Of a DNA stretch of 64,000 nt, positions 31,614 through 53,614 are shown in pieces. The stretch lies in assembly GCA_963717935.1 (NCBI GenBank), contig CAVQXP010000004.1:2016001-2080000 (forward strand). The letters are read 5' to 3'. How positions within the stretch are numbered: position 1 is the first letter of the stretch; the number at the start of each line of letters is the position of its first letter. The notes under the pieces are model-generated. The model was not told the origin of the DNA. It saw nothing but the letters and a program-made list of their open reading frames with translations, and searched no databases. The DNA is from Candidatus Eiseniibacteriota bacterium (GTDB taxonomy: Bacteria > Eisenbacteria > RBG-16-71-46). Position numbers and translations under genes: made by a program.

Positions 31614-32309
31614 ATGCTCATCGCGATCCGCGACCTGCACCGCGTCTACCAGGTCGGTACCGAGGAGGTACACGCCCTCAACGGCGTGAGCCTCGACATC
31701 GAGCGCAACGAGTACCTCGCGATCATGGGCCCTTCGGGCTCGGGGAAGTCGACGCTCATGAACATCGTCGGCTGCCTCGACACGCCGTCCGCGGGCTCCT
31801 ACAAGCTCAACGACCGTGAGATCGGGGCGCTGTCGGACGACGAGCTCGCCGGCATCCGCAACCAGGAGATCGGGTTCGTGTTCCAGACCTTCAACCTGCT
31901 CCCCCGGGCGGACGCGCTCCACAACGTCGAGCTGCCGCTCATCTACGCCGGGTACAAGCACGAGGAGCGGCGGCGGCGCGCGAAGGAGGCGCTCGAGCTG
32001 GTCGGCCTGGGAGACCGCATGAAGCATCGGCCGAACGAGCTCTCGGGGGGGCAGCGGCAGCGCGTGGCCATCGCCCGGGCGCTGGTGAACCGTCCCAGCA
32101 TCATCCTGGCCGACGAGCCCACCGGCAACCTGGACAGCGTGACCGGCGAGGAGATCATGGCCGCGTTCGAGCGCATCTGGGAGCAGGGCAACACCGTGAT
32201 CCTCGTCACCCACGAAGCCGACATCGCCGCTCACGCGCGGCGCGTGGTGCGCATGCGTGACGGACACATCGAGAGCGACGGCCCGGCCCCCGCCCACCCT
32301 GCCCCATGA
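31614..32309 (+). CDS. ABC transporter ATP-binding protein (MacB/LolD-like)
   Basis: [43 protein letters not shown]. Confidence 0.95.
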
Positions 32310-33523
32310 ACCTCCGCGAGAGCATGGGCATCGCCCTGCGGGCCCTTCGGGCGAACAAGCTCCGGTCTTTTCTGACCCTGCTGGGCACCATCATCGGGGT
32401 CGGCTCGGTCATCTTCGTGCTCTCGGTGGTCGAGGGGCTCAACCGCTACGTCTCGGAGAAGATCCTCAACGCCGGGGCGAACGTCTTCTGGATCGACAAG
32501 TACGGCCTCATCACCAGCGAGGATGCCTTCCAGGAGGCGCAGAAGCGGCCCGACATCACGCTCGACGACGCCGATGCGCTCCGGCTCACACTGCGGCACG
32601 CCCGCATGGTCGTGGCCATGGCCGACGCCACGGCTCCCGTGCGCCAGGGCAACAAGGTCGTCCGGGGCGTGGGGGTCCGGGGCCGCGGAGCGGGCTACGA
32701 CGTGGTGGATGACCTGACCATCGACCAGGGGCGCCACCTGACCGAGTTCGACGACCGCCGCCGCCAGATGGTGTGCGTCATCGGGCCGGAGATCGCCGAG
32801 GAGCTCTTCCCGGGACTGCAGGCGGTCGGGCGCATGGTCCGCGTCCGGGACTGGACCTTCGAGGTCGTGGGGGTGACGAAGGCGAAGGGCAAGTTGCTGG
32901 GCCAGTCGCAGGACCGCTTCGTGGCCATCCCGATCCACACGTTCCAGAAGTACTGGCAGGCGCGCGGAAGCTTCTACGTTTCCATCAAGAGCGTGGACCA
33001 GCCCTCGCTGCCGGTGGCGGAACAGGAGGCGCGCAACCTCATGCGCGCGCGCCACCACCTGCCGCCGGGCCGCCCGGACGACTTCGGCCTCAGCACGGCC
33101 GACACGTTCCTCGAGCTCTACCGGAACATCACCGGGGGCGTCTTCGCTCTCACGATCGGGGTGGCGGTCATCTCGCTCCTCGTGGGCGGCATCGTGATCA
33201 TGAACATCATGCTGGTCTCGGTGACCGAGCGGACGCGGGAGATCGGGGTGCGCAAGGCGCTCGGCGCACGACGCCGCGACATCCTCATGCAATTCCTCGC
33301 CGAGGCCTCGACGCTCTCGCTCGCCGGGGGGCTGGTCGGGATCGGGTCGGGCGTGGCGTTCGCCCTGCTGGTCGGTCTGGTGAGCCCCCTGCCCTCGGCC
33401 GTGAGCGTGCCGTCCCTGTTCCTGGGCCTTGCGATGTCGTGCCTGGTGGGTGTGTTCTTCGGGTCGTACCCGGCCTGGCGAGCCTCCCGTCTCGACCCCA
33501 TCGAAGCACTGCGCTACGAGTGA
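32306..33523 (+). CDS. MacB/FtsX-type ABC permease
   Basis: [47 protein letters not shown]. Confidence 0.95.
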
Positions 33524-34794: not shown

Positions 34795-34830
34795 GCCCGC
34801 GGCGGCGGGCCGGCGTTCCCGCACGACTCC

Positions 34831-34839
34831 TGCTATATT
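34831..34839 (+). promoter_or_regulatory. Extended -10 element directly upstream of the uvrA ATG
   Basis: TGcTATATT ending 6 nt before ATG 34846; no SD sequence. Confidence 0.45.
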
Positions 34840-34845
34840 CCGGGC

Positions 34846-37764
<2,919 letters not shown>

Positions 37765-37768
<4 letters not shown>

Positions 37769-38875
37769 ATCCGACCACCACCACTCCCCGCGAGACACCG
37801 CGAACGTCCGGCGCCATTCCCACCGGCACGATGAGAGCCGTCCTCAAGACGAAGGCCGGCACCGGCGTCGAGATCCGCGAGGTGCCCATCCCCGTGGCGG
37901 GACCGGGGCAACTGCTCCTCCGGGTGCTGCGCGCCGGCATCTGCGGCACCGACCTGCACATCTTCGAGTGGGACGCCTGGAGCCAGAACCGCATCCGTCC
38001 CCCCGTCACGATCGGGCACGAGTTCGTGGGTGAGATCATCGCCCTGGGTCCGGGGGTCACGGAGTTCCAGCTCGGCGAGCGGGTCTCGTTCGAGAGCCAC
38101 ATCGTCTGCGGGCACTGCACCGCGTGCCGCACCGGGAACGCGCACGTCTGCCAGAACACCCGGATCCTCGGGGTGGACGTGGACGGCGGCTTCGCGGAGT
38201 ACGCGGTCGCACCGGCGGTCAATGCCTGGCGTGCACCCGGCGAACGTGCCGCTCGAGGTGCAGAGCATCATGGAGCCGCTCGGCAACGCGGTGCACACGG
38301 CCTTCTCCGGAGACCTTTCCGCCTGCCGCATCGCCGTGACCGGCTGCGGCCCCATCGGGCTCTTCGCGATCGGCGTGGCGCGCGCGGCGGGCGCCTGCCA
38401 GGTGATCGCCAGCGACGTCTCGCCTTACCGGCTGGACCTCGCGCGCAAGATGAGAGCCGACGCCGTCATCGACGTGTCGAAGGAGGACTTCGTCCAGCGC
38501 GTGACGGAGCTCACGGACGGCCGCGGGCTGGACGGCGTGCTGGAGATGTCCGGCAACGCGAAGGCCATCCGCGACGGTCTCGCGGCGCTCCGCAACGGCG
38601 GGCGGCTCTCGCTGCTGGGGCTGCCGCGTGAGGAGTTCGGCCTGGACTGGAACAAGCTGCTCGTCTTCAAGGGAGTGACGATCCACGGCATCGCCGGGCG
38701 GCGCATGTACGAGAGCTGGTACCAGATGGACAACCTGCTGCGCACCGGCAGCCTCGACGTGCGGCCCGCCATCTCGCACGTGATGCCCATGGAGAGGGTG
38801 ACCGAAGGCATCGAGTTGCTGCGTTCCGGCAATGCCGGCAAGATCGTGCTCATCCCCTGGGGGCAGGAGGCGTAG
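37765..38875 (+). CDS. tdh: L-threonine 3-dehydrogenase (one apparent frameshift near 38230; start may be 37831)
   Basis: [18 protein letters not shown]...GHEF, C..C..C......C Zn site, [30 protein letters not shown]. Confidence 0.92.
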
Positions 38876-39194: not shown

Positions 39195-40304
39195 ATGTCC
39201 ACGCTCGGCGCTGCAAGGCCTACCCCGTTCACCGTCTACCACCGCGCCCTCGACGCGAAGCTCGTGGAGTTCGCGGGGTTCGAGCTTCCCCTGCGGTACA
39301 CCGGCGACCTGCGCGAGCACCAGTGCGTGCGCAACGCGGTGGGCGTCTTCGACATCACCCACATGGGCGAGTACCACGTTTCGGGCCCCGGAGCGGGCGA
39401 TTTCATCCACCGCATGGTCACGAACGACGTGCTGGGCATGCAGGTCGGCCAGGCGATCTACACGGCCATGTGCCGCCCGGACGGGGGCATCGTGGACGAC
39501 CTGCTCGTCTACCGTCTGCCGGACCGCTGGATGATGGTCGTGAACGGGGCCACCAACGCCAAGGACTGGGCGTGGCTGAAGGAACAGGTGCCGACGGGCG
39601 TCGAGTTCCGGGACATCAGCGACGAGACGGCGCTGCTCGCCGTGCAGGGGCCGAAGGCCGAGCTCGTGCTCCGTGGCCACGTGCCCGACGCGGCGCTCGA
39701 CCTGGGCTTCTACCGCCTCATGGAGGGTGCGGCCTTCGGCGCCCCGGCGGTCATCTCGCGCACCGGCTACACCGGCGAGGATGGCTTCGAGCTCTACTTC
39801 GCTCCGCGCCACGCCGCGCAAGTGTGGGAGGGGCTGATGGCGGCGGGCCGCCCCCACGGTCTACAGCCCGTGGGGCTCGCGGCCCGGGACTCGTTGCGGC
39901 TCGAGATGGGCTACATGCTCTACGGGAACGACATCGACGACACCACCACGCCGCTGGAGGCCGGGATCGGCTGGACGGTGAAACTGAAGAAGGACGCATT
40001 CAACGGGCGCGAGGCTCTGCTCCGGCAGAAGGAGGCGGGGCTCGTCCGCAAGCTCGTGGGCTTCGAGCTCGACGGACGCCGGGTCGCTCGGCACGACATG
40101 ACGATCGAGTCCGGCGGGCGCGCGGTGGGCCGGGTCACGAGTGGCACGTTCAGCCCGAGCCTCGAGCGCCCGATCGGCATGGGCTACGTGGAAAGCGCGC
40201 TGGACCGCCCGGGTGGCACCCTCGAGGTGCTGGCCGGCGGGACGCGCCTCAATGTGCGCATCGCTCCGCGCCCCTTCTGGACGCGGGGCTCGCGCCGCTC
40301 CTGA
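39195..40304 (+). CDS. gcvT: Glycine cleavage aminomethyltransferase
   Basis: FAGFELP..Y, FDITHMGE, DDL.VY, VQGP, SRTGYTGEDGFE, GL.ARD.LRLEMG..LYG. Confidence 0.96.
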   Translation: MSTLGAARPTPFTVYHRALDAKLVEFAGFELPLRYTGDLREHQCVRNAVGVFDITHMGEYHVSGPGAGDFIHRMVTNDVLGMQVGQAIYTAMCRPDGGIVDDLLVYRLPDRWMMVVNGATNAKDWAWLKEQVPTGVEFRDISDETALLAVQGPKAELVLRGHVPDAALDLGFYRLMEGAAFGAPAVISRTGYTGEDGFELYFAPRHAAQVWEGLMAAGRPHGLQPVGLAARDSLRLEMGYMLYGNDIDDTTTPLEAGIGWTVKLKKDAFNGREALLRQKEAGLVRKLVGFELDGRRVARHDMTIESGGRAVGRVTSGTFSPSLERPIGMGYVESALDRPGGTLEVLAGGTRLNVRIAPRPFWTRGSRRS

Positions 40305-40314
40305 GGAGGATGCC

Positions 40315-40704
40315 GTGGGCTACCCCGATGACGTCCGCTACACCGCCGAGCACGAGTGGGCCCGGCTCGAGAAGGGCATCGTCACCATCGGCGTCACGTC
40401 CTACGCCACCGAGCAGCTCGGCGACGTGGTCTTCGTCGAGTTGCCGGAAACCGGCGCCCGGCTGGAGGCGCTGAAGGCCTTCGGCGTGATCGAGGCCGTG
40501 AAGACCGTCAGCGACCTCTTCGCGCCGGTGTCCGGCGAGGTGATCGAGCGCAACGGTGCGCTCGCCGACAACCCCGCGCTCGTGAACCAGGATCCGTTCG
40601 GCGAGGGCTGGATCCTGCGCATCCGGCCCTCCGACCCGGCCGAGCACGCGAAGCTGATGTCCAACGTGGACTACGAGAAGCACGTGGAGGGGCAGCACGC
40701 ATGA
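40315..40704 (+). CDS. gcvH: Glycine cleavage H protein
   Basis: YT.EHEW, QLGDVVFVELP, IEAVKTVSDL with the lipoyl Lys, VNQDP.GEGW. Confidence 0.96.
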   Translation: MGYPDDVRYTAEHEWARLEKGIVTIGVTSYATEQLGDVVFVELPETGARLEALKAFGVIEAVKTVSDLFAPVSGEVIERNGALADNPALVNQDPFGEGWILRIRPSDPAEHAKLMSNVDYEKHVEGQHA

Positions 40705-42041
40705 GCTTCGTCGGCCTGACGCGTGACGAGGAGCAGCGCATGCTGCAGGAGATCGGCGTCGCGCGCTTCGAGGACTTGCTCGCGGCGATCCCGAAGGACG
40801 TGCTGCTCGAGCATCCGCCCGTGATCCCCGGGCCGCTCTCGGAGATCGACCTTCGCCGCCTGCTGGGCAAGTGGTCCAGCGAGAACCACGCCGCCGAGAT
40901 GGTCTCCTTCCAGGGCGGCGGGGTCTACGACCACTGGATCCCGGCGGCGGTGGACGCGCTCGCGAACCGCTCGGAATTCGTCACGGCCTACACGCCCTAC
41001 CAGCCCGAGGTCGCGCAGGGCACTTTGACGGCCATCTTCGAGTTCCAGAGCATGATGGCGGAGCTGACGGGCTGCGACGTGGCCAACGCGTCGATGTATG
41101 ACGGCGCCACCGCCACGGTCGAGGCCGCGCTGCTCGCGCGCCGCCAGACCGGACGCAAGCGCGTGGTCGTGGCGGGGATGGTCCATCCGCACACGCTCGC
41201 GGTACTGCGCACGTACCTCGACCCGGTCGAGGTCACGCAGGTCGGGGACATCGCGGGACTCGCGGCCCCCGCCGCCCTGAAGGCGGCCCTCGGGCTCGAC
41301 ACGGCCTGCCTCATCTACCAGCACCCGAACTTCTTCGGCCTGCTCGAGAGCCCCGCGCCCCTGCACGCGCTCGCCCACGACGCGGGTGCGCTCGCCATCG
41401 CGGTCTGCGATCCCATCGCGCTCGCCCTGCTCGAGCCGCCCGGCCGCACCGGCGCCGACCTCGTGGTGGGGGAGGCGCAGTGCCTCGGGAACCCGATGTC
41501 CTTCGGCGGCCCGCTGCTGGGCTACTTCGCCGCGAAGCAGAGCCTGCTCCGCGGGCTGCCCGGCCGGCTCGTCGCAGAGACCGCCGACCGCCAGGGTCGC
41601 CGCGGATTCGTCCTGACGCTGCAGACCCGCGAGCAGCACATCCGGCGCGAGAAGGCCACGTCCAACATCTGCACGAACCAGGGACTGATGGCGCTGCGCG
41701 CCACGATCCACATGGGCCTGCTGGGCCGCCTGGGGATGCGCGAGGTCGCGGAGTTGTGCGTCCAGAAGAGCCACCACGCCGCGCGGCTCGCCGCCGGGAT
41801 CCCGGGCTACGCGCTCGCCTACGAGGCCCCCTTCTTCCGGGAGTTCGTGCTGCGCTGCCCGGTCGAGGCGCGCCGGGTGATCGAGGCCGGCCTCGAGTTC
41901 GGGGTGAGTCCCGGGATCAACCTCGGGCGCTTCCGGCCCGAATGGAAGGACCTCCTGCTGGTCGCCGTGACGGAGCTGCGGGACGCGAGCGAGATCGACC
42001 TCTGGGTCCAGGCCCTGCGCAAGGCAGGGGGTGCGCGATGA
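40701..42041 (+). CDS. gcvPA: Glycine dehydrogenase subunit 1
   Basis: TAYTPYQPE.AQG, NASMYDG, FGGP, LQTREQHIRREKATSNICTN. Confidence 0.96.
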   Translation: MSFVGLTRDEEQRMLQEIGVARFEDLLAAIPKDVLLEHPPVIPGPLSEIDLRRLLGKWSSENHAAEMVSFQGGGVYDHWIPAAVDALANRSEFVTAYTPYQPEVAQGTLTAIFEFQSMMAELTGCDVANASMYDGATATVEAALLARRQTGRKRVVVAGMVHPHTLAVLRTYLDPVEVTQVGDIAGLAAPAALKAALGLDTACLIYQHPNFFGLLESPAPLHALAHDAGALAIAVCDPIALALLEPPGRTGADLVVGEAQCLGNPMSFGGPLLGYFAAKQSLLRGLPGRLVAETADRQGRRGFVLTLQTREQHIRREKATSNICTNQGLMALRATIHMGLLGRLGMREVAELCVQKSHHAARLAAGIPGYALAYEAPFFREFVLRCPVEARRVIEAGLEFGVSPGINLGRFRPEWKDLLLVAVTELRDASEIDLWVQALRKAGGAR

Positions 42042-43498
42042 TCATGCCCCGCCGGCTGTTGATCGAGCAGGGTGGCGCGGGCCACCGGGGCCCGGCGCTG
42101 CCCGCGTGCGACGTGCCGCAGCGGCCGCTCGCCGAGTTGTTCCCGGGCGTGGCCCTGCGGGCCGAGCTGGCGTTCCCGCAGGTCAGCGAGCCCGAGGTGG
42201 TGCGGCACTTCACCGAGCTCTCGACGCTCAACCACCACGTGGATCGTGGCTTCTACCCGCTCGGTTCGTGCACGATGAAGCACAACCCGAAGATCGACGA
42301 GGAACTCGCCGGCCTGGCGGGCTTCGCGAAGGCGCATCCCCTGGCGGGCGACGACGCGACCCAGGGCGCACTGCGGGTCATGGCGTCGGTGCAGCGCCTG
42401 CTCGCCGACATCACCGGCTTTGCCGCGGTGACGACGCAACCCGCCGCGGGCGCGCACGGCGAGTTGACCGGCCTGCTGCTGATCCGTGCGTATCACCGGG
42501 CGAAGGGCGATGGCGAGAAGCGCCGCCGCGTGATCGTGCCCGATTCGGCGCACGGCACCAACCCGGCGAGCGCGAGCCTGGTCGGCTACGAGACCGTGGT
42601 GATCCCCTCCGGCCCCGATGCGACCGTGGACCTCGAGGCGCTGGCGCGGGCTCTGGACGAGCGCACGGCGGCGGTGATGCTCACCGTGCCGAACACGGTC
42701 GGCCTGTTCGAGCCGCGCGTGCTCGACGTGACCAGGCTGGCGCACCAGGCCGGGGCGCAGTGCTACATGGACGGAGCCAACCTGAACGCTCTCGTGGGAA
42801 GGGTGCGGCCGGGTGACCTGGGCTTCGACGTCATGCACATCAACGTGCACAAGACGTTCTCGACCCCGCACGGCGGGGGCGGCCCGGGAGCCGGGCCCGT
42901 GGCCGTGGCCAGCCACCTCGAGCCATTCCTGCCGATGCCGATCGCCGTGGTCGAGCAGGGCGGACGGGTGCGCCTCGATTGGGAGCGCCCGCAGTCGATC
43001 GGCCGCGTGCACTCCTTCAACGGCAACTTCGGCATCCTGCTGAGAGCCCTGGCCTACATGCTCACGCTCGGGCCCGAGGGACTCGCCGAGGTGAGCCGGG
43101 TCGCCATCCTGAATGCCAACTACCTCATGCGGCGGCTGGCGAAGACGTACGACCTGCCGAATCCGCAACACTGCATGCACGAGTTCGTGCTCTCGGGCCG
43201 GGGGCTCAAGAAGCACGGCGTGAAGACCCTCGACGTGGCGAAGCGCCTGCTGGATTTCGGCGTGCACGCGCCGACGGTCTACTTCCCGCTCATCGTCGAG
43301 GAGGCCCTGATGATCGAGCCCACCGAGACGGAGACGCTCGACCGGCTCGACCACTTCGCCTCGGCGATGGAGCGCATCGCCACCGAGGCGGCAGAGAACG
43401 CCGAACTGCTGCAGCAGGCCCCTCACACCACACCCGTGGGCCGCCTCGACGAGGCTCGCGCCAGCCGTGAGCCCAAGCTCCGATGGAGCCTCCCGTAG
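42038..43498 (+). CDS. gcvPB: Glycine dehydrogenase subunit 2
   Basis: YPLGSCTMK, QPAAGAHGE, DSAHGTNPASA, YMDGAN, HKTFSTPHGGGGPG with the PLP Lys, MIEPTETE. Confidence 0.96.
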   Translation: MIMPRRLLIEQGGAGHRGPALPACDVPQRPLAELFPGVALRAELAFPQVSEPEVVRHFTELSTLNHHVDRGFYPLGSCTMKHNPKIDEELAGLAGFAKAHPLAGDDATQGALRVMASVQRLLADITGFAAVTTQPAAGAHGELTGLLLIRAYHRAKGDGEKRRRVIVPDSAHGTNPASASLVGYETVVIPSGPDATVDLEALARALDERTAAVMLTVPNTVGLFEPRVLDVTRLAHQAGAQCYMDGANLNALVGRVRPGDLGFDVMHINVHKTFSTPHGGGGPGAGPVAVASHLEPFLPMPIAVVEQGGRVRLDWERPQSIGRVHSFNGNFGILLRALAYMLTLGPEGLAEVSRVAILNANYLMRRLAKTYDLPNPQHCMHEFVLSGRGLKKHGVKTLDVAKRLLDFGVHAPTVYFPLIVEEALMIEPTETETLDRLDHFASAMERIATEAAENAELLQQAPHTTPVGRLDEARASREPKLRWSLP

Positions 43499-43589
43499 GG
43501 TCGAGACCCACCAGGTGGGAAGGAAGGGAGATTTGGGGCTGAGCGCAGGACGCGCTTCGCAGGAGGCTCGGTCCATCGAGCCGGGCACG

Positions 43590-44039
43590 ATGCCGCCCGA
43601 TGTCCGCGTGGGCTCTCCGGCCACGGTGGAGTGGACCGTCAGCCCATGGCGGGAGGACCCCGCCCGAGCAGCGCTCGCGGTGCTCGCGGCCCTGCTCCTG
43701 GGGTTGTTGGCAGCGTGGCTGCTGGCGGGGGAACGCTTCCTCGCCACGCTCATGGGTCTGGCCGTGCTCGGCGTGCTGGCGCCGGGAATGACCCCGATCG
43801 CGTGCCGGGTGGACGACGATGGTGTGGCGCGCCGCGTGCTCTTCGCCTGGCACCGCAGGACCTGGCCGGAGATCCGGCGGGCCCGGCTGAGTGCCAACGG
43901 GCTCTTCGTCTCGCCGTTCGCGCGGCGCAGCCGGCTCGACCGTTTCCGGGGCCTGTACCTCCCCGTGCCGCGCCGCACGGCGCGTGCCGAGGCGTTGCTC
44001 GAGGCCCTGCGGCAGGAGGTGCAGCGTCATGGCCTCTGA
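43590..44039 (+). CDS. Hypothetical membrane protein (2 TM plus soluble tail; start uncertain)
   Basis: W.V.PWRE.P, hydrophobic hairpin, LSPF..RSRLDRFRG-like tail; overlaps the next gene. Confidence 0.65.
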   Translation: MPPDVRVGSPATVEWTVSPWREDPARAALAVLAALLLGLLAAWLLAGERFLATLMGLAVLGVLAPGMTPIACRVDDDGVARRVLFAWHRRTWPEIRRARLSANGLFVSPFARRSRLDRFRGLYLPVPRRTARAEALLEALRQEVQRHGL

Positions 44040-44400
44040 GACGCCCCCGCTGGCCGCCGAGGATCTGGCGCTGCTCGAGCGCGTGGCCGGGCGTGTGGTG
44101 GAGTTGCGCCTCGAGGTACCGGCGATCCTGACGCTGGAGTCCGTGCGGCCTCTCTCGTTCGTGGCAAGCCAGGCCATGCTCTTCTTCCAGCCGCTGGTGC
44201 AGGCGCTCCTGCGCTTCGGTGACTACCAGCGTTTCGCAGCGCTGGCCGAGCGCCGCGACGCGCTCGAAGCGTTGACCGCGTGCATCGAGCGCCGCGCGGA
44301 GGAGTCCCGGGCCGCGCGCAGGGCGGCACGCGCGGGGGCCGCGAAGGGCCCGGCGGCGGCCTCCGGAGGACCCGGTGGGCGCGCCGGGAAGACGACATGA
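44029..44400 (+). CDS. Hypothetical small helical protein
   Basis: LLERVA.RVV...LEVPAIL.LES.RPLSFV.SQ...FF.P; GGAGG RBS; translationally coupled on both sides. Confidence 0.7.
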   Translation: MASETPPLAAEDLALLERVAGRVVELRLEVPAILTLESVRPLSFVASQAMLFFQPLVQALLRFGDYQRFAALAERRDALEALTACIERRAEESRAARRAARAGAAKGPAAASGGPGGRAGKTT

Positions 44401-46240
44401 GCGGCCGCACGACGCCTCCCCGCCCGGAGGACGTCCATTCGATCCTCGCCACCGACTGCGGGTCCACGACCACCAAGGCCATCCTCATCGAGCGTCGGGG
44501 CACCGCGTACCGGCTCATCGCGCGCGGCGAAGCGCCCACCACGGTCGAGGCCCCGTTCGAGGACGTGACGCGCGGCGTGCTGAACGCGGTGCGCGAGGTG
44601 GAGGAGCTGGCCGGCCGGCGCCTGCTGGATGGGGATGTCATCCTCACGCCGATGCAGCAGGGCGCGGGCGTGGACCTCTACGTCACGACCTCGAGCGCGG
44701 GCGGCGGGCTCCAGATGATGGTCTCGGGCCTGGTGCTGCAGATGACGGGGGAGAGCGCCCAGCGGGCGGCGCTGGGTGCCGGGGCGATCGTGATGGACGT
44801 CATCGCCCTGAACGACGGCCGACGGCCGCACGAGAAGATCCAGCTCCTGCGGCAGTTGCGCCCCGACATGATCCTCCTCTCGGGGGGCACGGACGGCGGG
44901 GACGTGCGGCGCGTCGCCGAACTCGCCGAGTTGCTCGTCGCGGCCGGTCCGACGGCCCGGCTCGGCGCCGGCTACCAGCTCCCGGTGGTCTACGCGGGCA
45001 ACCACGACGCGGCGGGCGTGGTGCGCGATCTGCTCGAGCCCCATGCGGCCATGAAGGTGGTCGCGAATCTGCGGCCCGCACTCGAGCGCGAGAACCTGCG
45101 CCCCGCTCGCGACGCCATCCACGAGCTCTTCATGCAGCACGTCATGGCGCACGCCCCGGGCTACCGCCGGCTCATGAGCTGGTCGCCGGTGCCCGTCATG
45201 CCCACGCCCGCTGCGGTGGGTCTCATGATCGAGCGCCTGGCGCGGCGCGACCACCTCTCCGTGCTGGGCGTGGACATCGGCGGAGCCACCACCGACGTGT
45301 TCTCGGTGTTCCAGGGGAGCGGCGGCGAGGCGGTCTTCCACCGGACCGTCTCCGCCAACCTCGGCATGAGCTACTCGATCGCGAATGTCATGGCCGAGGC
45401 CGGCCTCGAGAACATCCTGCGCTGGGTGCCGTTCCCGGTGGAGGAGGCGGTGCTGCGGAACCGCGATCCGCAACAAGATGATCCGCCCCACCACCATTCC
45501 GCAGACCCTCGAGGACCTGCTGATCGAGCAGGCCATCGCGCGCGAGGCGCTGCGGCTGGCGTTCGAGCAGCACCGGGCGCTGGCGGTGGAGCTCAAGGGC
45601 GTGCAGCAGGAGCGCACGATCTCCGAGGCGCTCCGCCAGTCGGCGGGGGGGGCCTCGGTCGTGGACCTGCTGGAAGTCGGGCTCATCGTGGGCTCGGGCG
45701 GCGTGCTCTCGCACGCCCCGCGCCGCGTGCAGGCAGCGCTCATGATGGTGGATGCGTTCCTGCCGGAGGGGCTCACGCTGCTGGCGGTGGACAGCATCTT
45801 CATGGCGCCCCAGCTCGGCGTCCTCTCGACCGTGCACGAGCAGGCCGCCAGCGAGGTCTTCGATCACGACTGTCTGGTGCGGCTCGGCGCGGTGCTCGCG
45901 CCTATCGGCACGGGGCGTCCCGGACAGGCCTGCGTGACCGTCGAGGTGAGCGGCCCCGACATGACGCCCGTGAGCCGGCGCGTGGCCTTCGGGGAGATGG
46001 CCCTGCTCCCGCTGCCCCCGGCCAACGCGTTCGGCCGCGTGAGCGCGGTGCCCGAGCACGGCTTCGACCTCGGAGCCGGGCGGGGGCGCCCGGTGAGCGC
46101 CCGCGTCCCCGGCGGCAGCGTGGGACTCATCGTGGACGCACGCGGACGTCGGCCCTTCGAGCTGCCCGTCGCCACAGCCCGCATCGAGCGCCTGCGCGCC
46201 TGGCACCGCGCGCTCGCGCTCTATCCCCGGGAGGTCGTGA
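44397..46240 (+). CDS. GlmL (glutamate mutase L)-like ASKHA-superfamily ATPase (apparent frameshift near 45460; 3' end approximate)
   Basis: ATDCGSTTTKA (phosphate-1), TSSAGGGL, LLSGGTDGG, MPTP.AV, GVDIGGATTDVFS (phosphate-2), RTVSANLGMSYS, VGSGGVLSHAP. Confidence 0.82.
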
Positions 46241-46242
46241 GC

Positions 46243-47375
46243 ATGGCGCACGCCTACACGCCCGGGACTCCGGGTGACCGCGCGCACCGTCGTGCGCCGC
46301 GAGCGACGGCTGCCGCTGAAGGGGCACGTCCTGGTCAAGGCTCGGCGACGCCGTCGGCCCCCAGGACGTCGTGGCGCGCACCGAGCTGCCCGGGAACGTG
46401 CAGACCATGAACCTGGCCTCGCGGCTGGATGTCGATCCCGCCCGGGTCCCGCAGGCCCTCCGCAAGCCGCTCGGCTCGGACGTGCGCGCCGGGCGAGGTG
46501 CTGGCCGGGACGCGGGGATTCTTCGGGTTCGCCCGGCGCAGCGTCGTGGCGCCGGCCGACGGCTTCCTCGAGAGCGTCTCGTCCGTGACCGGGCAGCTCG
46601 TCCTGCGCGAGCCGCCGATCCCGGTCGAGGTCAGCGCCTACGTACGCGGCATCGTGGTCGAGGTGCTGCCGGACGAGGGCGTGATCGTGGAGGCGCGCGG
46701 CGCTCTCCTGCAGGGCATCTTCGGTGTGGGGGGCGAGACCTGGGGCGCGGTGGCGCTGGCGGTGGACTCGCCCGATGCCGAGCTGACGCCGGGGCGCCTG
46801 CGGCCCGAACACCGCGGGCACGTGGTCGTCGGCGGCGCGCTACGTCAGCCTACGAGGCCCTCATGCGCGCACGCGCGCTGGGCGTCGCGCGCGGTGGTGG
46901 CGGGCGGCATCGACGACCTCGGACCTGCGGCAGTTGCTGGGGCACGAGCTGGGGGTGGCCATCACCGGCTCGGAGAACCTCGGCCTCACGCTGGTGCTGA
47001 CCGAGGGCTTCGGACGGATCCGCATGTCGGACCGCGCCTGGGACCTGCTCGGCGCTCGTGCCGGCCGCCTGGCATCGGTCAGCGGCGCGACGCAGATCCG
47101 TGCCGGGGTGCTGCGCCCCGAGGTGCTGATCCCCGAGTCCGACCCCGGCACGGCGCCCGTCGAGCGCGACACGGGCGCGGGGCTCGCACTCGGATCGCTG
47201 GTGCGCGTGATCCGCGCGCCGCACTTCGGACGCGTCGGCCAGGTGGTGGAACTCCCATCCGAGCTCAGGAAGCTCGAGACCGAGGCCATGGTGCGCGTGC
47301 TGGTCGTCGCCTTCCGGGAGGACGGGGCGCGCGCCGCTGGTCCCTCGCGCCAACGTGGAGATCATCGCCTCGTGA
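46243..47375 (+). CDS. Conserved hypothetical cytoplasmic protein 'MAHAYTPG' (several apparent frameshifts)
   Basis: Rebuilt across frames: MAHAYTPG, RRLPLKG, VVAPADG...SSVTGQ..LREPP, QGIFGVGGE, LGVAITGSE, LTEGFG, GATQIRAGV.RPE, VR.IR.P.FG, VPRANVEII-stop. Confidence 0.75.
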
Positions 47376-47395
47376 GCCGGGCATCCCCGAAATCG

Positions 47396-47424
47396 TTGAC
47401 AGGGCGGGCGGGGCGTCTTAGGCT
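47396..47424 (+). promoter_or_regulatory. Putative sigma70 promoter for the DUF6754 membrane module
   Basis: TTGACA-N17-TAGGCT; GGAGG RBS before ATG 47494. Confidence 0.55.
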
Positions 47425-47493
47425 TTCCGCACCCGCGTGCCCATTCGCTGCCGGCCGCGGCCTGGGCCCCGCACGTGCAACACGGAGGTCGCC

Positions 47494-48773
47494 ATGACGG
47501 GAGGGACGGCGTGCAACACCGCGCGGGCCTGACGGCCGTGGTCGTGCTGGTGGCGCTGCTCGCGCCGCCCGCCGCGCGCCCAGGTAACCGCCATGAGCGG
47601 AGCGCCGCCGATCATCGTCCCCGAGGCCGCGATCGCGAGCCCTCCTGCGCCGGCGCTCCTCCCGGGCGAGTTGCAGGCCCCCCATCCCGCCCGCAGCCTC
47701 ACCTGGACGGACGCCCCGGACGACGCCGGACGCGCCGTGGACCTGTCCTGGGAGCCGTCGCCCGACGACGACGGGCTTCACGTGCTCGTGGACGGCTATT
47801 ACCTGATGCGCTCGGAGAGTCCGGGCGGGCCCTGGACCCTCGTGGACTCGGTCGCCGCCGGGGTGGCCACCTCCCGGGACCAGTCGGCGAGCCTCCGCCG
47901 CGACGTGGCCTACTTCTACCGCGTGGACACGCACGGCCCGGGCGGCGTCACCCCGGCCGGGAGCGTGACCGGGCCGGCCTTCGCGAGCGTCGCAGTGGTT
48001 CAACCACACGCGCTGGAGCGTGCTGCTGCTGACCATGTTCTTCTTCGGCTTCGTGCTGTTCTTCATCCAGAGCGCGCAGGGCGAGGGAAAGAAGCCCGTT
48101 CCTCCGGCGCATCCCCGGCATCGACGCCATCGAGGAGGCCATCGGCCGGGCGACGGAGATGGGGCGCCCGGTGCTCTACGTGCCCGGCGTGCAGGACATC
48201 GAGGACATGCAGACCGTGCAGGCGCTGATCATCCTCGAGAGCGTCGCGAAGACCACCGCCCGTTATCGAGACGCCGATCAAGGTGCCGGTCTCGTACCCC
48301 ATCCCGTTCACGATCGCGCAGGAGATGGTGAAGAGCGGCTACGTGCACGCCGGGCGCGCGGAACAGTACGACCCGGACAGCGTTCAGTTCGTCTCGCCCG
48401 AGCAGTTCGCCTACGTCGCGGCGAATCACCGGCGTGATGACGCGCGACAAGCCGGCCGCGCACATCTTCCTGGGGGCGTTCTTCGCGGAGTCCCTGCTGC
48501 TGGCCGAGAGCGGGCCACGCGACCGGGGCCATCCAGGTCGCGGGCACGGCGAACGCGAACCAGCTGCCCTTCTTCGTCGTGGCCTGCGACTACACGCTCA
48601 TGGGCGAGGAGTTGTTCGCGGCCAGCGCCTATCTCTCGGGCGAACCGAAGCTCGTGGGCAGCCTCAAGGGCGCCGACCTCATGAAGATCACCATCATCGT
48701 CCTGCTGGTGGTCGGCTGCGTGCTCGAGACGTTCGGGCAGCACGGCCTCACGCAGTGGCTGGCAACGCAATAG
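47494..48773 (+). CDS. FN3-like plus DUF6754-like membrane protein (several apparent frameshifts)
   Basis: Signal peptide; FN3-like L.W..SPDD...GY...RS....Y.YRV; TM; RRIPGIDAIEEAIGRATEMGRP; QFAY; FFAESL.LAE; QLPFFV.ACDYTLMGEE.FAASAYLS. Confidence 0.75.
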
Positions 48774-48783
48774 GAGGCGAGGC

Positions 48784-49434
48784 GTGAAGCGCGAGATCCC
48801 GCTGTTCGTGACCGCCACGATCGGCCTCTTCATGATCCTGTCGTTCTTCGTGCCCCATCAACTGGTGAGCGTGCCCGCGGACTTCCTCCAGCAGAGCGCG
48901 ATCATCATCGTGGCCTTCGGCATCGTGCTGGGCGGGGCGAACCTGCTGCGCGTGAACCTCGAGGCGGTGGTCCGGCGCCAGCCCGACTGGCCGTACAAGC
49001 TCGTGCTCATCGCGGGGCTGGTCGTGACGGTCGCCCTCGGTCTCATCGAGGGCCGCGACTTCCAGGCGCCCGGCACCCGCTCGACCTGGATCTACGACCA
49101 CGTGTACTCCTCGATGAGCAGCGCGATGTTCGCCCTGCTGGCCTTCTTCATCGCGTCGGCGGCGTTCCGCGCGTTCCGGATCCGCACCGTGGAGGCCGCG
49201 CTGCTGGCGGCGGCCGCCTTCATCCTGATGATGGGGCGCGTGCCGCTCGGGGGCGTGCTCACGGCCGGGCTCCCGCGCGAGCTGCGGATCGAGACCCTCG
49301 CGCAGTGGATCCTGGACGTCCCGCAGAACGCCGCCAACCGCGCCATCCTCATCGGCGCGGCGCTGGGCGTGATGGCCACCGGCCTGCGCGTGATCCTCGG
49401 GATCGAGCGCAGCTACCTGAGCGGGGAGGATTGA
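48784..49434 (+). CDS. Conserved hypothetical multi-pass membrane protein
   Basis: About 6 TM; MFALLAFFIASAAFRAFR.R; RAILIGAALG...GLRVILGIERSYL; intact ORF with AGGAGG RBS. Confidence 0.8.
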   Translation: MKREIPLFVTATIGLFMILSFFVPHQLVSVPADFLQQSAIIIVAFGIVLGGANLLRVNLEAVVRRQPDWPYKLVLIAGLVVTVALGLIEGRDFQAPGTRSTWIYDHVYSSMSSAMFALLAFFIASAAFRAFRIRTVEAALLAAAAFILMMGRVPLGGVLTAGLPRELRIETLAQWILDVPQNAANRAILIGAALGVMATGLRVILGIERSYLSGED

Positions 49435-49437
49435 GCC

Positions 49438-50273
49438 GTGAGCCTGGCCGCTTCCTTCGAGCGTCTGGACCGCCGCTGGATCTATCGGCATCATGGCGCT
49501 GCTCGTCCTCCTGCCGCTGCTCTGGCCCCTGAACCTGCCCGCTGGAGCCCTCGCCGCCGGTGCGCGCCTACCACGACGCGATCGCCGCATTGCCTCCCGG
49601 CAGCACCGTGCTGATGTCCTGCGACTTCGACCCGGCGTCGCGGCCCGAGCTCGAGCCCATGGCCCGCACGACCCTGCGGCAGCTCTTCCGCAGGCACTGC
49701 AAGGTCGTCGTGGTGGTGCTGTACCCGGGTGGCGCGCGCATCGTGGACGCGATCGTCCAGGACGTGGCGCAGAGAGTGCCGCCAGGTCGACGGCGTCGAC
49801 TACGTCAACCTCGGCTACAAGGCCGGGCAACGAGGCGGTCATGGTGCTCATGGGGCAGAGCATCGCGCAGACCTTCCCGCGCGACCACAACGGCCGCGAC
49901 GTGACGCGCCTGCCCGATCATGCGGTTGCTGCGAAACTACTCCAGCTGCGCCCTGCTGGTGAGCCTCTCCGTGGGCTACCCGGGCACCAAGGAGTACGTG
50001 CAGCAGGTGCAGGGACGCTTCCACATCCCCATCATCGCCGGCGTGACCGCGGTGTCCGCGCCGCACGCTCTACCCGTACCTGCAGAGCGGGCAGTTGCGC
50101 GGGCTGCTCGGCGGCATGGCCGGGGCTGCCGAGTACGAGGACCTGCGTTACGAGCGCGGCATGGCATCGCGGGGCATGGACGCGCAGTCGCTCGCGCACA
50201 TGTTCATCGCGCTGTGCATCGTGCTCGGCAACGTGGCGCAGTGGGAGCGCAAGCGGAAGGAGACGCGCGATGA
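49438..50273 (+). CDS. Conserved hypothetical membrane-anchored protein (several apparent frameshifts)
   Basis: LDRRWIY + TM; DFDP.S.PEL.PM; DYVNLGY; TAVSAP..YPY..SGQ..GLLGGM.GAAEYE; GMDAQS.AH + C-terminal TM. Confidence 0.72.
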
Positions 50274-50947
50274 GCCCGCACCCGAGTCCCGACCCTGCGG
50301 CGTGTGGGTGGCGGCCGCGCTCACGCTCTGCGTCTTCAGCTTCCTCTACCGGGAGAATCCGTTCTATCGCTTCGCCGAGCACCTGTTCGTGGGCGTCTCG
50401 GCCGGGTACTACATCGTTCTGAACTTCTGGACCGTGCTCGTGGCGAACCTCTGGGATCCGCTCGTCGCCGCGTTCGACGGCCGGCAGGGCTCGCCGTTCG
50501 CCGCGCACCTCGGGGACTACCGCGCGTTCCTGCTGCTGCCCGCCCTGCTCGGCTTGCTGCTGTTCTCGCGCTTCCTGCCGCGCTACGCCTGGATGGCGCG
50601 CTGGTCGCTGGCGGTCATCATCGGGGTCTACGCCGGCCTCAAGACCACGGGCTTCGCCCAGGGCGACTTCGTGGCGCAGGTCCACGGCAGCATCCAGCCG
50701 CTCTGGACCGGCCACTGGGGCTCGAGCGTGAACGCGTGGATCTTCACCATCGGGCTCGTGACGTCGCTGCTCTTCTTCTACTTCAGCCGCGAGCAGAAGG
50801 GGGCGCTGGGCTCGGCTTCGCGTCGTCGGCGTCTTCTTCCTGATGGTCTCCTTCGGCGCGGGCTACGGCTACACGGTGATGTCCCGCATCTCGCTCCTCA
50901 TCGGGCGCTTCCAGTTCCTGCTGTTCGACTGGCTGGGCCTGCGCTGA
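50270..50947 (+). CDS. Conserved hypothetical multi-pass membrane protein (apparent frameshifts)
   Basis: LTLCVFSFLYRENPFYRFAEHLFVGVSAGY; FFYFSRE; FLMVSFGAGYGYTVMSRISLLIGR.QFL..DWL-stop. Confidence 0.75.
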
Positions 50948-50966
50948 GCGCCGACCTCCGCCCGCG

Positions 50967-51756
50967 ATGATCCTCTGGTGCGACGGGGGCCACGATCCCG
51001 CCGAGAACATGCGGCGTGACACGGCACTCCTCGAGGCCGCAGCCGCGGGGGCAGAGCCGGTCCTGCAGGCTCTTCACGCTTCGTCCCCCCGGGCATCACC
51101 CTGGGCCGCGCGCAGGATCCCGGGCGCGAGCTCGACCTCGACCGGTGCCGCGCAGCCGGGGTCCCCTGGGCCGTGCGTCCCACCGGAGGCCGCGCCATCT
51201 ACCACGACGAGGAGTGGACCTACTCGCTGGCCGCCGCGGCTGGCCGACCCATCGTGGGGCGGCGGGCTGGAGGCGGCGTACGGAAAGGCCTCCGGCCTCC
51301 TGGTGGCCTCGCTCACGCGCCTGGGCGTGCCCGCCACGCTCACGCCCGGGGCGGCGCGCGGCGGACCTCGCGCCGCGCTCCGCCCGGGGCGCCGCAGCAC
51401 CGTGCTTCGCCTCGACGGCGCGCCACGAGATCGTGCTGGAGAGCGGCAAGCTCGTGGGCAGCGCGCAGCGGCGGACGGCGCGGGCATTGTTGCAGCAGGG
51501 AAGCGTGCTGCTCGGCCCCGCCCACCTGAGGCTGGCGGACTTCCTCGCGATCCCGGATTGCGCGCGGGAGCGCGTGCGCGCCGGCCTCGATCAGGCCTCG
51601 GCGCACGCCGGTCCGTGGCTGGGGCCACGGCCGCCGCTCGCGCGCTGGGCGGACGCCTTGCAGCCGGACCTGCCCGCGGGCACCCGCCGGATCGACGGCG
51701 AGAGCGGGCTGGCCTTGACGGGCGCCGGCATCCCGACACCGTCCCTGCTCGGTTGA
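50967..51756 (+). CDS. Lipoate-protein ligase / octanoyltransferase (LplA/LipM family; apparent frameshifts)
   Basis: ENM..D..LL, ITLGR.Q, RPTGGRAIYH..EWTYS, CF......EI....KLVGSAQRR, LLQQGS. Confidence 0.85.
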
Positions 51757-51825
51757 CCCCCGACCCGGAGCGGTCGGATACTCGGGTTGCCTCACGCGCT
51801 CCCGCTCCTCCTGGAGGGCAGGAAG

Positions 51826-53614
51826 ATGGCCCACCGGCATGCGATCCGGATGGGACTGGCCGCGGCGCTCGTCGTGAGCTGCGGTGGCCGCTCCGGCCTG
51901 CGCCCAGCCCCTGCGCACCCCCATGCGCGAGGCGGGCGTCCCCGGGCGGCCGCTTCGTGATCGGCGTGACCAACGACGCCAGGACCTTCAATCCGATCAT
52001 GTCGAACGAGACCAACTCGAGCGACGGTGAGCGACCGGCTCTTCACGGCGCTGACCGAGTTCGACAACATCGCGCAGAAGCCGTCCCCGGCGCTCGCCCG
52101 GAGCTGGGAGGTGAGCCGCGGACGGGCTCACCTGGACGTGGCACCTGCGGCGGGGCGCGCGGTTCTCCGACGGGCATCCGATCACCGCGGAGGACGTCCT
52201 CTTCAGCTTCGCGGTGGCCTACGATTCGACCCTGCACCAGTCCATCTACGATCTGCTCACGCCGTACGGGCAGAAGCTGCAGGTCTCGGCCCCGGACTCC
52301 TACACCGTCGTGACGCGCGTCGCCCGGCCGCACGCCCTCCTGGTGCCGGCGGTGGGGGCCCTGCGCATCCTTCCCCGGCACGTGCTCGAGCCCGCCTGGC
52401 GGGCAGGCCGCTTCGCCTCGTCCTACGGCGTGACCACGCCCACCCGAGAGCCTGGTGACGAGCGGGCCCTGGAAGCTCAAGCAGTTCGTCCCGCGGGAGA
52501 AGACCGTCCTGACGCGCAACCCGTACTGGTTCGGCGTGGACGCCCGCGGGCGGCGGCTCCCGTACCTGGACGAGCTGGTCTTCCTCGTGGTCCCGGACCA
52601 GAACACCGCGGCCCTCAAGTTCCAGGCCGGCGAGGTCGACGGCATCGACAACGTGAAGGCGGAGGACTACGGGACCTTCGCCCGGAGGCAGACGCGCGGC
52701 GGCTACACGCTCCACGACCTGGGTGCCGCGCTGACGAGCAACTTCTTCTGGTTCAACCTCAATACGGTCAAGCAGCCGGGCGGGCAGGAAGCCGGTGGGC
52801 GCGCCGTTCGCGGACCCGGTCAAGCTACGCCTGGTTCTCCAGCCGCGACTTCCGTCGCGCGGTCTCCATGGCCATCGACCGCGATGCCATCATCCGCAGC
52901 GTCTTCTTCGGCGAGGGCGTGAAGAACTGGTCCCTCATGACCCCGGGCTACCGGCTCGTTCCACGACTGCGCGGTCACGGCCGCCTGCGACTACGACCCG
53001 CCGCGGGCGATGCGCCTGCTCGCCCGGCTCGGCTTCCGCGACCGCGACGGCGACGGCGTGATCGAGGACTCGAAGGGCAACCCCGTGCGCTTCACCCTCA
53101 AGACCAACGCGGGCAACGTGCGCGTCCAGATGGCCAACTTCGTGCGGGACGACCTGGCCCGGGTCGGCATCCAGTGCAGCGTGGCCGCGGTCGACTTCAA
53201 CACCTGATCGACAACATGCGCGAGGACTTCGACTACGACGCCATCCTGGCCGGCCTGGGCGCCGCGGTCCCGCCCGACCCGGCGATGTGCGGCAACTTCT
53301 ACCGCTCCAGCGGGCTCTCGCACTTCTGGAACGTCCGGCAGAGCGCGCCCGGAGACCGCCGGCAGAGGCTCGGCTCGACTGCCCTCTTCGGCGAGCTGCT
53401 CCTGCCCGCGCACTTGTCCGACCCGCCGGCAGCCTGAGCGCGCAGCATGGACCGGATCCTGGACGATCGAGTGCTGGCTCATCTGGCTGCCGACCATGAA
53501 GGTCAGAGCTGCCGGTGCGCGAACCGCTTCGGGAACGTGCACCCCACGATCCTGCCGCACCGCCTGCTCTGGAACATCGAGACGGTGTTCGTCAAGCCAC
53601 GGGGCCGGAGCTAG
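51826..53614 (+). CDS. Peptide/nickel ABC transporter substrate-binding lipoprotein (many apparent frameshifts)
   Basis: Lipobox LVVS-C; TFNP; PALA.SW; FSDGHPITAEDV.FS; SGPWKL; RNPYW; LPYLDE; FRRAVS.AIDR; D.DGDGVIED. Confidence 0.82.

Follow-up and report, generated by a model that had tools for sequence, protein, structure and literature searches.

What does an ATPase of the GlmL type do in a run of membrane-protein genes? The question is raised by a 64,000-nucleotide (nt) stretch of contig CAVQXP010000004.1 (positions 2,016,001–2,080,000; Candidatus Eiseniibacteriota, assembly GCA_963717935.1), hereafter the window, in which eight adjoining genes (g1–g8) lie between gcvPB and a lipoate-ligase gene. 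They encode, in order, a protein with two transmembrane (TM) segments, a small helical protein, the GlmL-like ATPase, a partner called 'MAHAYTPG', an FN3/DUF6754 protein, a polytopic protein, a protein whose large soluble domain is anchored at both ends, and another polytopic protein. We conclude that the eight genes very probably constitute one ATPase-plus-membrane system.

The G+C content of the window is 72%, and raw open reading frame (ORF) lists are therefore uninformative. Third-position GC showed unbroken plus-strand coding with many frame switches from 43.0 to 52.6 kb. Our gene model is the intact relative L016 (genome G021, 99% complete), whose proteins were mapped onto the window by tblastn. 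This mapping, together with Pfam, located all of g1–g8 on the plus strand at 43590–50947, in agreement with the eight co-oriented genes that a first-pass annotation of the window had proposed between gcvPB and the ligase (Table 1). That annotation was right about membership and about the start of its interval (43590..51756); it had placed the anchored protein last, which is in fact the seventh gene, and its end point is the stop codon of the ligase, g8 ending near 50947. Three internal terminators were found versus 3.6 expected by chance, all of them within genes. Chance cannot account for such an arrangement, since dozens of loci from several phyla share the gene order.

A scan of species-representative genomes anchored on g4 returned at least 574 loci. 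All locus counts given here refer to the best 80 of these, which are labelled with about a dozen mostly candidate phyla. The ATPase gene g3 was present in 59 of the 80 and at least one full g5–g8 set in 37, with labels that include Eisenbacteria, Fermentibacteria, Zixibacteria, Marinimicrobia, Latescibacterota, Synergistia, Bacillota and others. In the other 21 loci g4 stood alone, eight times on contigs shorter than 10 kb. Stand-alone g4 genes had unrelated neighbors, yet in the five such genomes searched MutL, the family of g3, was found elsewhere in the genome in four and DUF6754, the domain of g5, in all five. Genes inserted in gaps within the cassette were unrelated and often on the opposite strand, and we rejected them as extra conserved components. 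Two variant layouts were also seen. Three Bacillota-labelled loci (L085, L086 and L093) have two tandem g3–g4 pairs separated by g2 and lack g1, and L093 has a g5–g8 module upstream. In two Poribacteria-labelled loci (L051, 4437–7459; L065, 5763–8798) the stand-alone g4 is preceded by two ABC-2-type permease genes with DUF3526, which may reflect a lineage-specific synteny or a link.

At the level of whole genomes, a search of 151 genomes sampled from the window's phylum detected MutL together with DUF6754 in 136, neither of them in 13, and one without the other in only two (G014 and G103). Since the two are missing together, and seven of the 13 double-negative genomes are 93%–96% complete, the set was lost wholesale, and these bacteria can do without it. 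A second phylum, to which a Poribacteria-labelled genome belongs, had MutL in 80 of 81 genomes and DUF6754 in all 81, with distances of up to megabases between the two genes where the genome is a single contig. The GlmL-like protein thus keeps company with its partner and the DUF6754 genes whether they form an operon or are dispersed, as had been anticipated. The tallies include the unpublished genome G026 as one among many, and no claim depends on it alone. The statement that the module had no assigned function also held up in Pfam, NCBIfam and the literature: no curated family gives a function, and no paper on DUF6754 or PF13941 was found in the searchable literature, which does not cover subscription-only publications.

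The ATPase itself matches PF13941 (MutL) over the full profile (1–450 on residues 11–482 of the 603 in an intact orthologue; E = 9e-124, 414 bits, above the gathering score), and the frame pieces of g3 in the window match at 1.6e-96 and 4e-20 (324 and 72.5 bits). It nevertheless stands apart from canonical GlmL, falling below the NCBIfam cut-offs of NF040745 (GlmL; 210.7 vs. 475 bits), NF040744 (Or-4; 203.8 vs. 600 bits) and TIGR01319 (GlmL family; 155.2 vs. 204.05 bits), and it had no match among PDB sequences. The three motifs of the ASKHA (actin/Hsp70/sugar-kinase) superfamily (phosphate-1, phosphate-2 and adenosine) read ATDCGSTTTK, GVDIGGATTD and GSGGVLSHAPRR; they are at least 95% conserved in 55 orthologues, and the cores quoted in the first-pass annotation (DCGSTTTK, DIGGATTD and GSGG) are all present in the window. 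Across the same 55 orthologues, 204 of 603 positions are at least 95% identical. Because of these motifs and this conservation, g3 is likely an active ATPase.

Glutamate mutase E (GlmE, PF06368) was found neither in the window nor in its genome (93% complete), as the first-pass annotation had noted for the window, and it exceeded its cut-off in none of the 151 phylum genomes, where six weak sub-threshold matches lay in longer open frames. The independence of the GlmL-like protein from the mutase is thereby upheld. On this evidence g3 is not a glutamate mutase helper, and annotation by family name misleads: glutamate fermentation should not be inferred where such genes are labelled 'GlmL / glutamate mutase'.

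An AlphaFold2 (AF2) model of a g4 orthologue (predicted local distance difference test [pLDDT] of 90.5) has three parts: an N-terminal barrel-sandwich hybrid, a central swivel and a C-terminal KOW-like barrel (Z ∼8–9). In the VIA fold search the barrel-sandwich hybrid (residues ∼49–123) aligned with RnfC (Z 7.7) and NqrA (Z 7.2). The swivelling beta/beta/alpha part (residues ∼130–297) gave the best structural matches, with Z of 8.5–10.2 and a root-mean-square deviation of 2.7–3.9 Å over 101–130 aligned residues; these were RraA (Z 10.2, 130 residues), the aconitase-X small-subunit family (9.8), enzyme I of the phosphotransferase system (PTS; 9.6), rifampin phosphotransferase (9.4–9.6) and the pyruvate kinase C-domain (8.6–8.7). 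Foldseek found no whole-chain relative (best TMq 0.2), no Pfam family matched g4 above threshold, and a profile search of PDB sequences returned marginal KOW/lipoyl matches only. The family comprises 2,488 clusters at 50% identity, and MutL and g4 occur as natural single-chain fusions (P0272 and P0362). We rejected a role for g4 as a phosphohistidine relay (no PF00391 match at E ≤ 0.1, and H202 outside the conserved columns of 45 sequences), which leaves the swivel fold standing. A role as a lipoyl carrier was ruled out because g4 has no conserved lysine, none occurring among the invariant or ≥90% columns; the match to PF00364 (lipoyl/biotinyl carrier) was sub-threshold, at 17.7 versus 22.1 bits.

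On the membrane side, DUF6754 (PF20539) was recognized above the gathering score both in a g5 orthologue (7.1e-114, 379.7 bits) and in the C-terminal piece of g5 in the window (6.7e-36, 124.2 bits), and the FN3 part matched titin FN3 domains in a profile search of PDB sequences, down to 1e-27. The AF2 model of DUF6754 (pLDDT 75.5) is a Rossmann-like alpha/beta sandwich between membrane helices, for which Foldseek found no whole-chain relative at E ≤ 0.001. The soluble domain of g7 is probably periplasmic, to judge by the charge of its termini. We considered whether it and the cytoplasmic domain of g5 are paralogues in a pseudo-symmetric complex and discarded the idea, with hhalign probabilities of at most 3.4% among g1, g2 and g5–g8. 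No Pfam, NCBIfam or PADLOC family matched g1, g2, g6, g7 or g8; g7 had no match in a profile search of PDB sequences and hit only unnamed clusters in the ESM Atlas, where g6 had no usable named match. There is no P-loop ABC ATPase or ABC-type permease in g1–g8, the window's ABC genes being a separate downstream Opp system, and an anti-phage defence system was dismissed with zero PADLOC families for the eight proteins at E ≤ 0.01. As for the first two genes, g1 is poorly conserved, with only six positions at ≥95% in 27 sequences, and g2 accompanies either g3–g4 or, in some loci, the membrane module, its position varying in L062 and L077.

Genomes carry one to nine DUF6754 matches versus one to three intact MutL matches. 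A g6 homologue lies directly after 18 of 20 DUF6754 paralogues, and four loci (L052, L059, L064 and L082) have tandem g5–g8 sets behind one g3–g4 pair. The ectodomains of the paralogues are variable and range from 225 to 765 amino acids (aa), while the DUF6754 domain keeps 380–414 bits. A domain scan of the ectodomains in 15 DUF6754 proteins gave one weak fn3 match only, and two long ectodomains matched nothing among PDB sequences. Separately, we observed a second MutL-family gene (∼330–340 bits) in an open frame of 865–1019 aa, the size of a GlmL+g4 fusion, in several families (genomes G080, G070, G149, G099, G147, G122, G125, G136, G110, G126, G047, G049, G120, G139 and G075). It occurs in the families with most DUF6754 paralogues and may be a second, fused type of energiser.

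Several of these genes are frame-broken in the window (g3, g4, g5, g7 and g8, as well as the ligase), which could mean that g1–g8 are pseudogenes and not a working system in this genome. Against locus L015 of the same genus (87.7% identity over 10 kb), positions 43000–53000 show 50 gap openings, of which ∼45 are +1 insertions in the window. The insertions lie outside homopolymers, set in abruptly at 45464 with nearly all following that position, and are spread at about one per 150–200 bases to 53000 across every gene, including the ligase and Opp genes. Short-read contigs (four runs, three studies) omit exactly one base at the same places in 11 of the 12 indel rows listed, of 47; the sites include 45465, 46342, 46841, 46848, 47989, 48266, 48509, 50266 and 50269, and a short-read contig spanning 47989 differs from the window by only three letters in 252. 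None of the sequencing runs contained more than 0.18 of the sampled words, and they served the indel check only. Third-position GC remains high in the shifted frames. Because the +1 insertions, in a region whose indels the first-pass annotation had wanted polished, are missing from both the same-genus genome and the independent short-read contigs, the frame breaks are assembly errors and not decay, and we regard a pseudogene cassette as highly improbable. The window from 45464 to 53000 looks unpolished, and any gene call there requires frame correction. The tdh-like dehydrogenase (37765–38875) is likewise divided between two frames. In another genome of the genus (G004, a single contig) the MutL gene was matched in several pieces with in-frame TGA stops; this is probably a long-read assembly with indel errors.

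Table 1. Genes of the module, its flanks in the window, and receptor genes beside related loci
Feature	Position	Strand	Description	Basis
g1	43590..44039	+	149 aa, TM hairpin and small cytoplasmic domain	ATG at 43590; tblastn to L016 g1 43620-44036; hydropathy
g2	44029..44400	+	123 aa, small helical, no TM segment	ORF, tblastn, hydropathy
g3	44397..46240	+	∼610-aa GlmL/MutL-family ASKHA ATPase (probable), ∼120-aa C-terminal extension	PF13941; +1 insertion at 45464
g4	46243..47375	+	∼374-aa partner 'MAHAYTPG': barrel-sandwich hybrid, swivelling beta/beta/alpha, KOW-like	tblastn, AF2; several +1 insertions
g5	∼47475..48773	+	signal peptide/FN3 ectodomain, TM, cytoplasmic Rossmann-like DUF6754, C-terminal TM	PF20539; start uncertain (insertions)
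g6	48784..49434	+	216-aa polytopic membrane protein, intact in window	ORF; 68.5% identity to L016 g6 over 216 aa; hydropathy
g7	∼49434..50270	+	∼277 aa, N- and C-terminal TM around ∼210-aa soluble domain	tblastn, hydropathy; several +1 insertions
g8	∼50275..50947	+	∼227-aa polytopic membrane protein	tblastn, hydropathy; +1 insertion at 50823
Lipoyl/octanoyl ligase	50950..51756	+	LplA/LipB-type; flank outside module; frame-broken by insertions	PF21948 3.1e-25, PF03099 2.8e-13 on orthologue
gcvT, gcvH, gcvPA, gcvPB	39195..43498	+	upstream flank	Pfam GCV_T, GCV_H, GDC-P, GcvP2_C
SusC-like receptors	L060 16401-18914; L072 14744-17503; L100 14799-18460; L040 15385-18084		after g8 (after ligase in L040)	

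The flanks named in the first-pass annotation (tdh, gcv, ligase and Opp) were recovered with Pfam: a tdh-like Zn-dehydrogenase (at 37.8–38.9 kb) upstream of gcvT, then the gcv genes, and downstream of the ligase an Opp-type binding protein, permease and ATPases. Two ordinary genes lie farther upstream (32261–33523 and 34795–36072); one encodes a MacB/FtsX-type permease, and the other is a fragment in which UvrA interaction and DNA-binding domains were recognized. We surveyed 53 proteins flanking 18 loci labelled other than Eisenbacteria. A SusC-type TonB-dependent receptor (CarboxypepD_reg, Plug and barrel) lies directly downstream on the same strand in L040, L060, L072 and L100, the last three being labelled Fermentibacteria/Aegiribacteria; in L100 ExbB follows the receptor. 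Peptidases adjoin L062, L077 and L085. Together, the gcv and Opp neighbors here and the receptors and peptidases elsewhere lean weakly toward peptide or amino-acid acquisition.

The explanation that best fits these data, which we hold with modest confidence, is a system of two modules in which a shared ATPase pair energises exchangeable membrane modules, perhaps for nutrient uptake; for ATP hydrolysis, docking, direction and substrate, what follows is what we infer. The products of g1–g4 would make up a cytoplasmic or membrane-tethered module and those of g5–g8 a four-protein inner-membrane unit. ATP would be bound and hydrolysed by g3, and g4, its fixed partner, would relay the motion by way of its swivel domain to the membrane unit's cytoplasmic side, with its barrel-sandwich and KOW modules doing the docking. 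The docking site on each membrane module would most plausibly be the cytoplasmic DUF6754 domain, g5 being predicted to hold its variable ectodomain (FN3 here) outside and this conserved domain inside. A path could be formed by g6 and g8, with specificity given by g7 and the g5 ectodomain, and one g3–g4 pair would serve from one to about nine membrane modules, distinguished chiefly by their ectodomains. Most likely, such a system would use ATP to carry nutrients of the peptide or amino-acid type inward across the cytoplasmic membrane. That it is an importer is a tentative proposal. Doubtful, in our estimate, is the further step to a new class of primary active membrane machine, in which an actin/Hsp70-fold ATPase with a swivel adaptor powers a four-subunit inner-membrane translocator and is shared by up to about nine substrate-specific modules.

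Several points weigh against this explanation. The counted genomes are related to one another, which makes the co-occurrences look more independent than they are. Hydrolysis of ATP by g3 is read from its motifs only, and the DUF6754 fold is a generic Rossmann-like sandwich (best Z 9.2 in VIA, pLDDT 75.5). Searches of Pfam, NCBIfam, PADLOC, PDB sequences and the ESM Atlas linked none of the subunits to a family for transport, secretion or energy coupling, and ectodomains of 225–765 aa are unusual for the substrate-binding parts of importers. About half of the 18 flanks are unrelated housekeeping genes, so the uptake context is suggestive only. Finally, we know of no ASKHA-driven transporter, and the mechanism would be without precedent.

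The gene order itself suggests another function, an accessory to glycine cleavage or lipoate metabolism that would scavenge or deliver lipoate or octanoate, or handle H-protein, with the lipoyl-like domain of g4 as carrier or mimic. The first-pass annotation likewise pointed to glycine/threonine, amino-acid or lipoate metabolism. In the best 80 loci gcvPB is directly upstream in 26, including Fermentibacteria-labelled loci and one WOR-3 locus, and MutL and gcvP share a contig at a distance of at most ∼4.5 kb in ∼76 of the ∼117 phylum genomes with both positions listed (matched by hand). A lipoyl ligase is directly downstream here and in L040, L052, L055, L056 and L082, and g4 has weak Biotin_lipoyl matches. 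We conclude that the gcv adjacency is a real, old and conserved gene order; it is not dependence, because 11 of the 13 module-less genomes retain gcvP (the other two are 82%–85% complete). Moreover, in genera whose P protein is a single chain the module lies elsewhere, and loci of Zixibacteria, Marinimicrobia, Latescibacterota, Bacillota and Poribacteria have no gcv link, so a required role in these pathways does not stand. The missing lysine in g4 also speaks against a lipoate accessory, and up to nine membrane modules per genome are hard to square with one cofactor; we consider such an accessory improbable. As an aside on the single-chain P protein (∼820–1180 aa, E ∼1e-170), it replaces gcvPA/gcvPB in the genera with handles g2, g28, g33 and g34 (not to be confused with our gene names) and in some members of families f13 and f14, where the module is not adjacent; four of the 13 module-less genomes belong to genera g2 and g28.

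Two further readings accept a working ATPase pair and give it other work. In a trans-envelope or surface machine, its conformational work would be carried by the single-pass g5 to the long ectodomain, serving adhesion, gliding, tethering or the energising of an outer-membrane process in the manner of actin-fold organisers such as MreB, FtsA or PilM. Such a machine would account for variable 225–765-aa ectodomains that have FN3 close to the membrane and are borne by a cytoplasmic anchor of extreme conservation, for the cytoskeleton-like conservation of g3 and for the TonB-dependent receptors and ExbB that adjoin the cassette in some loci; most labelled carriers are, moreover, candidate phyla, which we take to be diderm. 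We nonetheless think it unlikely, given that bacteria can do without the system (it was missing from 13 of 151 genomes, several of them 93%–96% complete), that a translocation path would better suit a pair of polytopic subunits with a soluble domain anchored at both ends, and that no motility, pilus or secretion family was matched in Pfam or NCBIfam. Alternatively, g3 and g4 could be a chaperone of the reactivase type, spending ATP on the replacement of a damaged cofactor or subunit; the client could be a soluble enzyme or the membrane complex itself. The PF13941 match that g3 shares with GlmL and Or-4 and the swivel fold of g4 are in keeping with this, as is the glycerol dehydratase reactivase discussed below. 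The pair co-occurs tightly, however, with four membrane proteins and not with any enzyme, no cofactor-binding family is present in the cassette, and GlmE is above its cut-off in none of the 151 genomes, which makes a reactivase decidedly improbable.

What is at stake in the two-module explanation is considerable. A gene set found in 136 of 151 genomes of one phylum, with MutL in 80 of 81 of another and with cytoskeleton-grade conservation, includes an ATPase annotated by family name as the helper of a B12 enzyme that these genomes lack. Widespread, very conserved and without assigned function, the set may encode an ATP-driven membrane machine of a new kind. If it is indeed an ATP-coupled transporter or envelope machine, membranes would have a new principle of energy coupling, in which ATP drives transport or trans-envelope work by a route distinct from those of ABC, P-type and rotary ATPases. 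The set is near-universal in several mostly uncultured phyla, and such a function would also supply a sizeable missing piece in the reconstructed metabolism of Eisenbacteria, Poribacteria, Zixibacteria, Fermentibacteria and related groups.

How does the module compare with known systems? Closest by family are GlmL/MutL, the accessory of B12-dependent glutamate/methylaspartate mutase, and Or-4 of ornithine degradation, which share with g3 the full-profile PF13941 match and the ASKHA motifs. They differ in that g3 scores below their cut-offs, is ∼600 aa long with a C-terminal extension, never occurs with GlmE in 151 genomes and is coupled instead to g4 and four membrane proteins. The swivel fold of g4 is common to the phosphohistidine domains of phosphoenolpyruvate-utilising enzymes (and to RraA and the aconitase X small subunit), but both the PF00391 match and a conserved histidine at the equivalent spot are missing, so that by sequence g4 is no phosphorelay domain. 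The N-terminus of g4 resembles the barrel-sandwich of RnfC and NqrA, with Z near 7 being background level; the relative P0347 passes the RnfC_N cut-off, and two others have weaker RnfC_N or NQRA_N matches. In Rnf and Nqr, too, small polytopic membrane subunits are joined by such a soluble protein, but no flavin- or Fe-S-binding or Rnf/Nqr membrane-subunit family was found in g4 or g5–g8 with Pfam and NCBIfam, and specifically none of the RnfA/E-NqrD/E, RnfD-NqrB or RnfG-NqrC type in g5–g8.

Two likenesses bear on mechanism. According to PMC7674605, the alpha subunit of glycerol dehydratase reactivase joins an Hsp70-like ATPase domain to a swiveling domain that releases the beta subunit on ATP hydrolysis. 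Here no dehydratase, no client or beta-subunit mimic and no B12 context was identified, and reactivase chains are not among the best 50 rows of either VIA fold list. With an ATPase and a swivel fold, g3 and g4 would offer the same two elements as the diol/glycerol dehydratase reactivases, on two chains that are fused in some organisms, and would have in them a precedent for an ATP-driven clamp-and-release. The other likeness is one of layout only: without any sequence or fold relation to g1–g8, energy-coupling factor (ECF) transporters, the general components of the PTS and TonB-ExbBD likewise have one conserved energising unit for several specificity-bearing membrane units.

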